The position numbers were made by a program, and so were the translations under genes. Shown here one piece after another: positions 17,161 through 64,000 of a DNA stretch of 64,000 nucleotides (positions are counted from its first letter, which is position 1; every line of letters starts with the position of its first letter). Below the pieces are notes generated by a model, which did not search any database, was not told where the DNA came from, and saw nothing but the letters and a program-made list of their open reading frames with translations. The DNA lies in the NCBI GenBank assembly GCA_030390025.1, contig CM059432.1, positions 15,750,001 through 15,814,000 of the forward strand, written 5' to 3'. This stretch comes from Squalus acanthias (lineage: Eukaryota).

Positions 17161-17906
17161 GTAAATCGATTTTTTTTTTTTTAAGTTTAAATTGAACCCT
17201 TTATTTTGAAATTGAAATTTAAAAACGTGTTTGGAGATTATTGCCTTGACTGGCTGATGAGAAAATGGCCAATAAAGTTTTATTTATAAAGGAAAGAATT
17301 AACTTTGCTCGGGGAGACAGTTCAAGTATGGAGAGCGACACCGTTTTAGCGACATGCCTTAAATTTAGTAGAAAATGCCGGATTACACTCACAATACAGG
17401 TAAATGTACTGCACATGTGTCCATTCACTTAACAAACATCTACCACCATTCAGTGACCAAGGAAGTAAAGCACCCACAGCGAACAAAAAGTACTCGCACA
17501 CTCTGTTTTTCATCTTAACCATTTTACAAACAAACGCACAAAGAGGTTAAAGTACACGCATGCGAATAACAAATATTGAGATGCCCAGCAAAGGTGTCTA
17601 TTACTCATTTCTTATTTACTAATCAGAAATGCAGTTAGCCACATCTGGATTCCCAATTTGCCGCATGTGTCCAGTGGCTAATGTATTGGACGACACTGAT
17701 CGACAACCCCCTTCACCCCATAGAATGCGACCACCCAGTGAAAGCTCCGTCCAGCCGATACCCCCTTTCTACAGGCATTGCCCCTGACAAATATCGCATT
17801 TGCCACTGGTTGTAAATTGCAGACTGCCTGATGTGACAAATGGTTCCTATGGTGGATTGGAAGGATGTGATGGCATGAAAACTTCATGAAGGCCTTGTCT
17901 TGAGGA

Positions 17907-18004
17907 CAAAAATGAGAAGTCGCACAACACCAGGTTATAGTCCAACAGTTTTATTTGAAATTACGAGCTTTCGGAGCTCTGCTTCTTCTTCAGGTACAGG
18001 TACA
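17907..18004 (-). mobile_element. 98-bp hammerhead-containing mini-insertion, family B, 12-bp TSD
   Basis: ttgtcttgagga at 17895-17906 and 18005-18016; minus strand gtac-CTGAAGA-agaagc.aga.gctcc-GAA-AGCT-C-gtaa (17961-17997). Confidence 0.8.
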
Positions 18005-31054: not shown

Positions 31055-31777
31055 AATAGAGTTTCTACCATGAAGAGCTAGGAATTACATGCACTAGTAC
31101 ATTATCTGTACAGTAAATACATCTTCCATAGTGATATCGGCATATCTCTGTTTTGATCTCTGTTTTGTCGATATGTGACTTCATAAATGTCCTGTTTCTA
31201 ACCTATGTACCATGGTCATTTCCCACCTAATTTGGCTAGTGCAAGCAATCTCCGAAATTTCAGTATAGTGGAAAGCTTTTCAGCCCATTGTGTCCATACA
31301 GTGTTCGTTCTCCCACTACAGCTATCTGCTGCAACACCACGGCCCTGCGCTTTCCCCATACCTTTCAATAGTTTTCTTCTTCAAGTGTTTATCTTCCTTT
31401 CTCCTATATAATGCGAGAGAATCTCGATGGAACCTGTTGCGAGTTGTTATGATCTGGAGCGCACTGCCTGAAAGGGTGGTGGAAGCAGATTCAATAATAA
31501 CTTTCAAAAGGGAATTGGAAAGGGTAAAATTTGCAGGGCTACGGGGAAAGGGCAGGAGAGTGGGACTAATTGGATAGTTCTTTCAAAGAGCCTGTGCAGG
31601 CACGATGGGACGAATGGCCTCCTCTGTGCTCTATCATTCTCTGATTCTACGATTGATTTAGCTTCCCATGCCACTTATGGTAAAACATTTCGGGGGAGAA
31701 ATTCAGTGTCGCCCCATTTGTCTCTTTTTTTCTTTCTTAATCTTTCCCTTTTCTTTATTTCTCTTTCTGTTCCTGAT

Positions 31778-31935
31778 ATATACTGTGTAATAGATTCCCT
31801 CACTGTACCTTTACCTGACGAAGGGGCAGCAGCTCGAAAGCTCGTAATTTTAAATAAAACTGTTGGACTATAACCTGGTGTTGTGCGACTTCTCATTTTT
31901 GTCCACCCCAGTCCAACACCTGCATCTTCGCATCA
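31778..31935 (+). mobile_element. 158-bp hammerhead-containing mini-insertion, family B, 10-bp TSD
   Basis: tgttcctgat at 31768-31777 and 31936-31945; ttac-CTGACGA-aggggc.agca.gctc-GAA-AGCT-C-gtaa at 31811-31847. Confidence 0.8.
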
Positions 31936-33803
31936 TGTTCCTGATTTGACATTGAATTCACCCACTCTAAATCACCCTGCTTCTCAGTCCTTCCTCTGTT
32001 TATTTCTTAACCCTCATTGGTTAAGGAGATACCCTGTTGGTCCCATTGTTCACCAGCGTCCCAGATGCCCTGTTGCCGTTATCAGCAACTTTCAGGGCAA
32101 AAAGATTTTTGAACGGAGGGCTGAAGGAAAAAGTCTAACTGACCGGGCACACCGTGAGATGCCCTGCTCCAGCAAATTCTGGTCCCAATATCTTTCAAAG
32201 ATCTGTGTGTTGGTGCACCGATACCTCTGTTCCACTGACACACTGAGAATTTTACCATTTAGGTAATTTACCATTCAAAAATAGATCATTGTGAAATGCC
32301 AAAAGTGCACACAGTCACGCACCAGTAATGGTTTGAAAATCAAGACTATGATCTCATTTCTGTCAATATGCTAACTTGCTTAATTCCAAATCATGAATAA
32401 ATGTTGGTTTCACTAACTAGTAGTTCCTGAGTTTACTCTCACTCTGGAAAAGCAGCCAGAAGGGATTTGTAATTTGAAGAAAATCAAATGGGTAGTTTTG
32501 CAATTATTTCATTTCTTCGATAACGGAAGCTGAAAAATAAATGCAATAGACTTTTGTGACATGTATAACTAATTTTCTATCATTTATTTTTATACATGCC
32601 TTGGGGGGGGGGGTGAAATTTGTGCTGTCAATAATTTTATTGGAAAAAGGTCAGCGTGGAGCTGTTTTGTACTCGCACTGACTTTTCCACTAATATTATT
32701 GCTTGGTGAATTTTCACCCTGATGTATACCTTTGAAAGGAGAATGGGTAAGCTGCAGTACAAATATCAAAATTCAGAAACGTGAATTTTTGTGTGTTCAC
32801 AACACTTGAATATCAAATTGCCTCATCACTTGATGGCCAAACATTTCTTAATTTCTCAATGTTCCAGATTTTGCTGAAGTATCATAATAAAGATATAACC
32901 TGCGAAGTATGCCATACACGTCCCTATCTTTCTGAAACTGAAAAAGGTGATTTTGTGAGGCTGCACTCCTGGTGTTGAGCCTTAGACCAGAGCGTGGGTT
33001 GCAGAATCTTCTCTATAGTGTTATAGCCCTATTTCCACCCCACAATCTTGTGTAATGAGGCACAGTGCCAGGGCTGTTGTCCTTAAAGGGGCAGCTGCAG
33101 GCTGCTCTGAAAATAGGGGGGGGGGGAAAACACCGTGGCACTCATTTCTGTGGGGCAAGGAGAAGCATGAATGTTCCCACCCGCTGCTGGTCTCTTAGTG
33201 CTTCATACCCCCACCTTTAAGGGCCCCCGTACGGTGCTGGTAGCTTGCCAAACATATTCTGACCCTGAACATGGTTCGGGCCTCTCACTAGTGGGTGGGC
33301 AGCGCGATCACTCCGCCCGATGCGCACTCTGAACAAAAATCAGCTTGTGGGAGTCTTCACAGGAACAAAGAGCGTGACCCTCACACTTAAACGCATTGTC
33401 ACGCCATTGTTTACATTATTCATTTACTCATTTACTTTGTTAGAATTCAACCTTTCCACATGAACATGACTTCCCAACATAATACTATGCTTCCAGCTTA
33501 AAAGGTGCTACCTTTTCTTATGGGGGGGCTGGGGAACCTCATTCACTGGCAGTGCATATGGACAATCATGGGCTCTTTTCTGGTATGTGCTGGTGGTGGG
33601 TAAAGTTCCTTCCCCCCCCCCCCCCTCCGCCGCCTCCCCACCAACATGGAAAATTAACCCAAAGTTTTTTTGAAAAAAAAATGAATCCAAGAAAGAGGTC
33701 TTTTGAATGGTCTTTGAATTATAACTTGGGATATTAGAACTTTAAGAGATGTCAGAAATGCTCTGCAGTGGGTTTTTATGGACTCAATTATTATTTTCAA
33801 CAG

Positions 33804-62052: not shown

Positions 62053-62289
62053 TCTTGTAACTGTAGTGAGATCGGTTCCGTTGGTCTTCAGTGTGATGGA
62101 ACGAGTGGTCACTGCCCCTGCAAAGGAGAGTTCAGTGGAGAAAAATGCAACAAGTGTGCTATTGGCTACAGGGACCACCCTCAATGCATTGCCTGTAAGT
62201 GCGATCCCAGTGGTACCAGACCTGAAAAATGTGATCTGACACAAGGAGTTTGCAGCTGTGAGGAACGCACTGGGCTTTGTCCCTGTAAG
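62053..62289 (+). CDS. LAMA1: Laminin alpha-1 exon (~exon 23)
   Basis: ggcAG|...|GTacag, 237 nt; SCNCSEIGSVGLQCDGTSGHCPCKGEFSGEKCNKCAIGYRDHPQCIACKCDPSGTRPEKCDLTQGVCSCEERTGLCPCK. Confidence 0.93.
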
Positions 62290-62681
62290 GTACAGCATCA
62301 CTTACATAACTATAGCATCTAATGAGAATGACTAACTTTATTCTCTTTTTATCGCACCTCTCTCCACTGTTCTATTTTTCTTGCTTTCTTTAGGCCCTCT
62401 TGTGTCATGTGCTTCTCTCAAGAGAGGCAGCAAATAACTTGCCTCCAGCTTCCTGATAATCTGCTATGCCGCATTTGACCCTGCCCTCCCCTGTAGGACA
62501 GCTGCAGAATGAGTTGACCTCTTATTTTTATGCCTTTCCTTATGTGGTAGAGAACCTCCCTAGATGTTAAGCCGAGATAGGGAACTCACCAATTGTTGGT
62601 AGGAACCTGAATGATACCACCTATTCCTTGGAATTCTCTACACCAGAGGGCTGTGGATGCTCAGTCATTGAGTATATTCAA

Positions 62682-62832
62682 TGATGCGGAGATGCCGGTG
62701 TTGGACTGGGGTGGACAAAAATGAGAAGTCGCACAACACCAGGTTATAGTCCAACAGTTTTATTTGAAATTACGAGCTTGTAATTTCAAATAAAACTGTT
62801 GGACTATAACCTGGTGTTGTGCGACTTCTCAT
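62682..62832. mobile_element. 151-bp family B insertion folded into a palindrome, 14-bp TSD, inside a CR1 3' fragment (62625-63000)
   Basis: ttgagtatattcaa at 62668-62681 and 62833-62846; inverted repeat 62719-62834. Confidence 0.85.
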
Positions 62833-63414
62833 TTGAGTATATTCAAGGCTGTGATCGATAGATTTTTGGACTCTAAGGGAATCAAATGGGCATTGGGCAG
62901 GAAAAGAGGTCGAAGATCAGCCATGATCTTATTGAATGGCGGAACAGGCTCGAGGGGCCGTATGGCCTACTCCTGCTCCTATTTCTTATGTTCTTATGTT
63001 AAGTGAAGCTGTGGTGGTGGCAGGGTGCATCCACTGTATTATGGAGTGGAGAGGCACAGGTTTAAAATCCCAAATCCTGCTGTGTTGTTGCTGAGGAGAG
63101 GTCTGGCTCTCATTCAGCAGATGATAGAAAATTGGAGGGAGAGTCTGTCGAGCTACTGTCATGTGCCTCAGGCTGAAGAATGGAGTCCTGGTAGAAGGTC
63201 ACCATCCCTCTTAGCGACAGAAAGTACATGAACTGGCAAGATCAGGAAATCAGTAATTTGATATGTTCAAAATATACAATTGAGGATCGTAACTTAAAAA
63301 AATCAATTCTTTTTATATTCCTTTTTGAGGGGGATTGACAGGGTAGATACTAAGAGGTTCTTTCCCCTTGCATGAACAGTCTAGAACTAGGGGCATAGTT
63401 TCAGGATAAGGAGT

Positions 63415-64000
63415 CATAAGAACATAAGAATTAGGAGCTGGAGTAGGCCATTTGGCCCCTCGAGCCTGCTCCGCCATTCAATAAGATCATGGCCGATCTT
63501 CTACCTCAACTCCACCTTCCCGCACTATCCCCATATCCCTTAATTCCCTTAGTTCCCAAAAATTTATCGACCTCTGTCTTGAATATACTCAATGACTGAG
63601 CATCCACAGCTCTCTGGGGTAGAGAATTCCAAAGATTCACCACCCTTTTAGTGAAGAAATTTCTCCTCATCTCAGTCCTAAATGGCCGACCCCTTATTCT
63701 GAGTCTGTGACCCCATGTTCTAGATTCCCCAGCCAGGGGAAACATTTTCTCAGCATTAACCCTGTCAAGCCCCTTAAGAATTTTATATGTTGCAATTAGA
63801 TCACCTCTCATTCTTTTAAACTCTAGCGAATATAGGCCTCAATCTCTCCTCATAGGGCAATCCCCTCATCCCAGGAACCAGTCTAGTGAACCTTTGTTGC
63901 ACTCCCTCTAAGGCAAGTATGTCTTCCTTAGGTAAGGAGACCAGAACTGTACATTGTACTCCAGGTGTGGCCTCACCAATGCCATGTATAATTGTAGTAA
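63415..64000 (-). mobile_element. CR1-type LINE 3' portion, runs off the window end
   Basis: ORF 63506-63811 and cataagaacataagaa tail. Confidence 0.88.

Follow-up and report, generated by a model that had tools for sequence, protein, structure and literature searches.

Two head-to-head ends of a Penelope-like element, probably joined at AGCT, in an intron-like stretch of a laminin gene of Squalus acanthias

The locus described here is a palindrome whose centre, AGCT, is also stem III of a minimal hammerhead ribozyme. It raises two questions: whether this self-complementary motif drove the inversion, as an earlier note on the same DNA had proposed, and whether the two arms were copied from one primed strand or from two. 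"The window" refers to the whole stretch of 64,000 nt that was analysed (assembly GCA_030390025.1, contig CM059432.1, positions 15,750,001 to 15,814,000). PLE: Penelope-like element. TSD: target-site duplication. PMC numbers and DOIs refer to those portions of the papers that were available.

The locus, its host gene and its target site

The inverted repeat has no spacer (62719-62776 / 62777-62834; 58 + 58 nt, 116 bp, 98% complementary). Its arms carry a single mismatch (g62774/t62779). These features, read in the sequence, are as the earlier note gave them. The same is true of the net insert of 151 bp flanked by an exact 14-nt direct repeat, and of the host repeat, which is restored when the insert is removed (empty site ungapped and 84/96 identical to a second copy at 63540-63635). 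Judging by its translated C-terminus, the host repeat is presumably a CR1. The folding z-score of the palindrome is -20.3 (0/200 shuffles equally stable). A self-complementary centre is expected of any spacer-less inverted repeat; what is real is that the central four bases are readable on both arms.

The locus keeps stem III and the 3′ side of the minimal hammerhead core. Stem II and CUGANGA are absent; the absence of the CUGANGA half had been noticed earlier, and this half is present in the window copies at ~31815 (+) and ~17993 (-). The 37-nt PLE tail, overlooked by the earlier note, extends the left arm and matches the end of another copy in the window. The element shares 1 nt with one end of the duplication and 2 nt with the opposite end. 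Because of these shared bases and of the family mode of 12 nt, the true stagger of the cut may be 12 nt rather than 14. Two starts can be proposed for the short arm: AGCT at 62775, with one C-to-T change, or the predicted cleavage G at 62780, with no change.

Table. Coordinates of the features of the locus and of its surroundings in the window. Strands are given where they apply.
Feature	Position	Strand	Remarks
Upstream laminin coding exon, EGF repeats	62059..62290	+	PF00053, E 5.5e-12
Host LINE 3′ fragment, interrupted (presumably CR1-type)	62625..63000	+	Target site used 18 times genome-wide in this register
Left TSD	62668..62681		14 nt; stagger likely 12 nt, the remaining bases also belonging to the element
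PLE tail, 37 nt	62682..62718	-	Not on the short arm; its end meets the ATG of the element ORF in long copies
Tail arm, 3′ part of pLTR	62719..62779	-	Crosses predicted cleavage site 62774/62773 and AGCT, to hammerhead A14 at 62779
Join AGCT, stem III of minimal hammerhead	62775..62778		Readable on both arms
Short arm, tail-less	62775..62834	+	Ends at an internal site common to the family
Right TSD	62833..62846		Exact 14-nt repeat

The host gene, on the + strand, is a laminin with EGF repeats (PF00053), and the insertion lies in an intron-like stretch after the exon listed above. A PDB search matched only netrin and laminin beta-2 EGF. A hairpin in the pre-mRNA, seen by the earlier note as a possible ADAR/Dicer substrate, is predicted by folding. 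Thousands of like hairpins are found in the genome, and the same intron carries inverted LINE pairs that are longer than the palindrome. One such pair, the LINE fragments 62625-63000 and 63415-63635, is 83-95% complementary in pieces and is a bigger potential duplex than the palindrome.

The LINE site 62668-62681 is used in the same register 18 times genome-wide, among 52,686 such sites. This is ~25- to 100-fold over chance for 100,000 to 25,000 tail copies, respectively, the copy number being assumed. Two more matches, in the opposite orientation, were found in the tail-selected sample described below (L046, L050). The recurrence suggests a target preference of the PLE for this near-palindromic LINE site.

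Identity of the element and layout of its copies

The sequence identifies the locus as the pLTR end of a PLE, probably of the Neptune type. Genome-wide, the 46-nt tail pattern has 4,600 exact matches. A relative of kilobase size, L188, contains a reverse transcriptase, a CxxxCxxC linker, a GIY-YIG-like match, a 3′ UTR, a hammerhead, an inverted tail arm and a duplication; its end module is the same as the window arms. The reverse transcriptase domain (PF00078) scores 36.4 bits (cut-off 29.6). The C-terminal match to PF01541 (GIY-YIG; E 4e-4) scores 21.1 bits, under the cut-off of 22.6; its position and motif fit. The linker of the Neptune clade is given as CX2-5CxxC (PMC8557442), and the CxxxCxxC read by eye in the L188 translation agrees with it. 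The pLTR is found on both sides of the ORF: in L188 the module follows the stop codon, and in 10/30 long loci it precedes the ATG.

Some further features of the long copies and of an array were observed. A LINE is nested within the PLE reverse transcriptase frame (L188:2730-4900). The pLTR before the ORF has an altered core (second base C) in 8/10 copies; the 3′ pLTR of the sister L188 is canonical. The altered-core copies (L296, L297, L298, L305, L309, L311, L314, L323) form one lineage and are non-independent. In an array of tail copies (C1:67.67-67.72 Mb; L156), copies are found every 1.5-7 kb on one strand, and one 10-kb piece, L156, has no open frame of 80 aa.

Two non-inverted copies of the family with the full hammerhead motif are present in the window (~31770-31937 (+) and ~17900-18004 (-)). 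One is tailed. The other ends at the internal site, starts 11 nt before the core and has a 12-nt duplication. In the window copies A and B, all parts of a minimal hammerhead (CUGANGA, stem II, GAAA, palindromic helix III, stem I) were recognised by motif. The hammerhead is read from the motif only: an Rfam scan of the window gave no match at the gathering score, and unconstrained folding of the window hammerhead copies did not give the active fold.

The layout of the family was examined on contig C1, in the 82 dispersed copies among the first 100 tail matches listed; the remainder is the array at C1:67.67-67.72 Mb and was left out. An inverted tail-less arm lies within 1-1.5 kb in 48/82 of these copies (51 by a looser rule). 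Duplications of 11-16 nt with the same layout were found in 44/51 scored loci, with a mode of 12 nt in 24/51. The short arm ends at offsets 13-25 after the anchor in 46/51, a narrow zone about one tail length inside. The tail-less, non-inverted window copy B, which has no partner, ends at the same internal site. The inversion at the locus is of the Penelope type, in line with the earlier note: a 37-nt one-sided tail, an inverted truncated copy and a TSD, in a family where 48/82 sampled copies are inverted. The 151-bp locus is an ordinary stub, one of thousands of back-to-back Penelope-type ends.

Two other identities were considered and rejected. Non-LTR retrozyme: the locus is a single inverted unit, not direct tandem units with a full hammerhead each. 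Self-copying palindromic unit (MITE or fold-back element): the centres vary by locus, and AGCT-centred loci span several subfamilies.

Positions of the joins and origin of the inverted arms

Joins were counted genome-wide as head-to-head anchor pairs. Forward counts are given; reversed-pattern controls gave 0-10. A first genome search was biased to look-alikes and was left out of the breakpoint counts. Just 5′ of the CUGANGA core, 4,491 joins were found (16-nt window), and 45/50 of those listed belong to the family. The other windows gave 328 joins around the cut site and AGCT (spacer 0-15, 16-nt window), 301 in stem II (16-nt window) and 235 downstream of the cut site (spacer 0-13, 14-nt window). 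These windows overlap and their anchors differ, so that the counts are not normalised densities, yet the 14-fold gap is large. As the earlier note expected, joins are non-uniform and AGCT recurs: 108 loci genome-wide, across several subfamilies, are centred exactly on it. AGCT is nevertheless not favoured. Among the 48 tail-selected inversions, none is centred on AGCT, 5 are shorter or in stem II, 24 lie near the 5′ edge of the core and 19 are longer. Hand counts were made in 50 listed joins per window. Around AGCT (of 328), 14 are centred on AGCT and 12 join stem III AGCT to an unrelated stem II AGCT. In stem II (of 301), 8 + 6 are centred on stem II palindromes. Downstream (of 235), 9 are centred on AATT and 4 on TTAA. 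AGCT is the largest single short-arm class but, from these sequences, it appears to act like one of several complements. The AGCT centre of the locus is likely a chance short match at which two copies were joined; most joins lie ~35 bases away.

The proposal of the earlier note was that two RNAs paired through an AGCU ribozyme dimer and that the enzyme switched template or folded back at this helix. AGCU is indeed the dimer helix predicted in PMC4209133. The 108 AGCT centres also exceed the scaled estimates for other single palindromes (~20-50 each, from shares of 50 rows), but AGCT occurs in every subfamily and is 6 nt long in most, whereas other palindromes are subfamily-bound. Joins from stem III to stem II AGCT, which a dimer does not predict, are nearly as common as AGCT centres (12 vs 14 of 50 listed). 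With 0/48 AGCT-centred cases in the tail-selected sample, and with 108 loci where the 5′ edge of the core has 4,491, the dimer is very improbable as the origin of the locus. As a driver of inversions in general, the dimerisation palindrome is not borne out: AGCT joins are about as frequent as their neighbours and 14-fold below the core edge. Palindrome variants of 6 and 4 nt do not discriminate (U17 form: 44/50 listed AGCT-centred joins vs 41/50 listed stem II joins).

Arm lengths and arm sequences bear on the number of strands primed. Fold-back of a tail-primed cDNA should give a longer tail arm and identical arms. Arm length was scored in a set of 45/50 listed loci; five of another family were dropped. 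These five (L123, L210, L212, L220, L226) show that a second hammerhead family also joins head-to-head at the 5′ edge of the core, and the hotspot may be general. Among 40 loci, the tail arm is longer in 26, the two are equal in 3 and the tail-less arm reaches further 5′ in 11, so that fold-back of one molecule, as put forward earlier, fits poorly. The excess of the tail-less arm is larger in L031, L054 and L100, and kilobases long in L188. Extents are under-estimated in L194, L204 and L216, whose subfamily is missing from the reference panel. Ungapped estimates beyond ~-20 are unreliable and were not used, nor was the loop-side assignment (13/29 ambiguous). The two arms of one locus differ (G/C) at N7 in 4/45 and by several stem II bases in 6/41, the latter possibly through later mutation or conversion. 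They are mostly of the same subfamily: 28/41 have ≤1 mismatch in 36 nt, vs 8% between loci. Because of this, a single RNA, or a single active source, is the likely origin of both cDNAs; arms of the same subfamily and often of similar length would equally be expected from fold-back or from repeated use of one RNA.

The explanation preferred here, and considered moderately probable from the sequences compared, is that the insertion, a dead end, consists of two short head-to-head copies of the ribozyme-bearing end, reverse-transcribed separately from both nicks and joined via AGCT microhomology. The endonuclease would nick both strands ~12 nt apart at a preferred near-palindromic site. One 3′ end would prime at the tail site and the other at an internal site ~37 nt upstream, as the available text of PMC11167929 and the fixed arm ends suggest. 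Both copies would stop early, mostly just 5′ of the ribozyme core (likely a capped RNA start) and less often anywhere downstream, a distribution matched by the joins. The two cDNA ends would anneal at any short complement available, here AGCT, and one CpG change would follow. The product would lack an ORF and retain one half of the ribozyme. Invoking the CpG change adds an assumption, since this locus alone, among 50 listed (of 108) AGCT-centred loci, has unlike bases at position 17. Two-sided priming is read as best on account of the arm lengths, the unlike arms, the lone tail-less copy B and the activity of a lizard PLE in vitro. The lizard enzyme cuts each strand and extends it, using one start site on either side of the tail; ribozyme cleavage is not needed and uncleaved RNA is the main substrate (PMC11167929).

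Three further alternatives to this reading were weighed. Self-priming: a strand folds back at a short palindrome and extends itself, and the endonuclease resolves the hairpin, leaving a tail on one side. It is akin to a proposal in PMC3846280, where palindromes at inverted junctions are described and interpreted as self-priming. The near-identity of most arms and the perfect palindromes at about one third of short joins agree with it; tail-less arms longer than tail arms (11/40; L188), unlike arms and joins with untemplated linkers are left unexplained, and it is quite unlikely. An assembly artefact is hardly credible. Among four short-read contig sets, none bridges the locus and two, which carry the same organism label, break at 62654, but short-read contigs break at any such repeat. 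The exact duplication, the one-sided tail, the clean empty site, the arm mismatch and the many like structures with duplications of their own speak against an artefact.

The third alternative keeps two-sided priming and has the short arm copied from ribozyme-cleaved RNA, starting at the cleavage G 62780. The tail arm would then run six bases further to A14, the AGCT symmetry would be coincidental and the mismatch would be the join itself. No mutation is required at the locus, whose arms are otherwise identical over 50 nt, and it is for this reason that a pile-up at the cut site matters here. Joins were mapped from anchors placed 6 nt past the predicted cut, on its downstream side (365 loci; 48/50 listed used, two non-family ones dropped). 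In the 29 joins without overlap, 15 arms end at +2 and 10 at +1, vs 3-5 each at +5, +4, +3, -1 and -2, although the spacer limit under-counts longer arms and a further 12 arms stop at the anchor edge, +6. In 11/48 loci the two arms both finish at +1/+2; symmetric joins are common at other positions too (8 at +3/+3), which the permutation test ignores. Minimal hammerheads cut poorly in vitro (PMC4209133), and in the available text on the lizard PLE no reads end at the cut site (PMC11167929). A cleaved template at this locus is, on balance, unlikely.

The main hotspot lies at -7 from the core, where the longer arm stops in 23/45 family loci (24 arms in all). The base before the stop is G in 21/24 arms and A in 3/24; the partner arm is itself G-rich, and the excess of G against a 2:1 null has p = 0.02. 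In 100 listed joins, the -7 base is preceded by G in 19, A in 6 and templated C in 75. By eye, 5/19 of these G's are explained by neither partner nor target, with two more cases; these sets overlap with the 45-locus set. The A at -7 sits in a YYANWYY context, which is the initiator consensus. Reverse transcriptases can add C opposite a cap; searches of the open-access literature gave no paper on this, and no passage of PMC4245944 dealt with caps. The pile-up at -7 with G in front is the basis for reading it as a capped RNA start, for which the odds are about even. An initiator-like TCACT was noted in a rotifer pLTR (Pen2a, PMC3846280). Against a single start at -7, the ends of the tail-selected loci range from -15 to -1, depending on the subfamily. 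Only one of 10 long copies begins at -7, and a T precedes it; the remaining nine extend 20 to >576 nt upstream, as would be expected of tandem templates, which is not proof of them. The -7 end may instead reflect pausing at stem I or, at this A, a branch-point stop. A splice acceptor was rejected, as no AG precedes it.

A wider reading, held tentatively and below even odds, is that the joins are a fossil map of germ-line RNA 5′ ends, with a capped start at -7 and a minor ribozyme-cut end, the locus being a product of cleaved template. The extra G before -7 arms would suggest an extra C copied at the cap. If this is true, the joins show two-sided priming, a promoter at the edge of the ribozyme and cutting by a minimal hammerhead in vivo.

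Comparison with known systems and significance of the junctions

In L1 twin priming, both target nicks prime and the cDNAs join by microhomology. There, second-strand priming is internal and the arms have no overlap; here one stretch is copied into both arms, which gives a palindrome. The head-to-head layout with a tailed and a tail-less arm is already in print (PMC8557442, PMC3846280, PMC2377424). EN+ PLE insertions with an inverted pLTR, a one-sided tail and a TSD are described for Pen2a_Av of Adineta (PMC3846280), in a general scheme (PMC8557442) and for Penelope of D. virilis (PMC2377424). Shared with these: a head-to-head inverted and 5′-truncated copy, a tail of 30-40 nt at one end (37 here), a TSD and a palindrome at the join. 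Different from these, as far as the available portions go: both arms are <100 nt here, with no ORF, the TSD is ~12 nt instead of 8-10, and thousands of copies allow a junction map.

The Poseidon element of Anolis (PAc, PMC11167929) likewise has a start site at each border of the tail, cuts and elongates both strands, and carries a hammerhead ~90 nt upstream of the start sites. Its hammerhead overlaps the start of the ORF, whereas the ORF starts here at the end of the tail, and the CxxxCxxC linker points to Neptune; inverted products, mapped here, are not mapped for PAc in the accessible part of that paper. The ribozyme resembles the minimal hammerheads of metazoan PLEs (PMC4209133) in its type I core, palindromic minimal helix III and variable stem II, but at the locus nothing beyond stem III and the 3′ side is left of it. 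The same source reports hammerhead pairs that lie on opposite strands at distances of 100-700 bp. As in non-LTR retrozymes (10.64898/2026.07.22.740005; PMC7229834), the sequence is pLTR-derived, hammerhead-bearing and non-coding; unlike their direct tandem arrays, in which every unit has a complete ribozyme, the locus is an inverted stub with half a ribozyme. A search of the open-access literature found no paper mapping PLE join positions or reporting peaks at -7 with G or at the cut site.

The locus is of value as a single member of a very large natural collection of PLE junctions. The spectrum of these junctions argues against a ribozyme dimer as the main cause of inversions. It leads to base-level predictions on the formation of inverted repeats, on the start of the RNA and on cutting by minimal hammerheads in cells.
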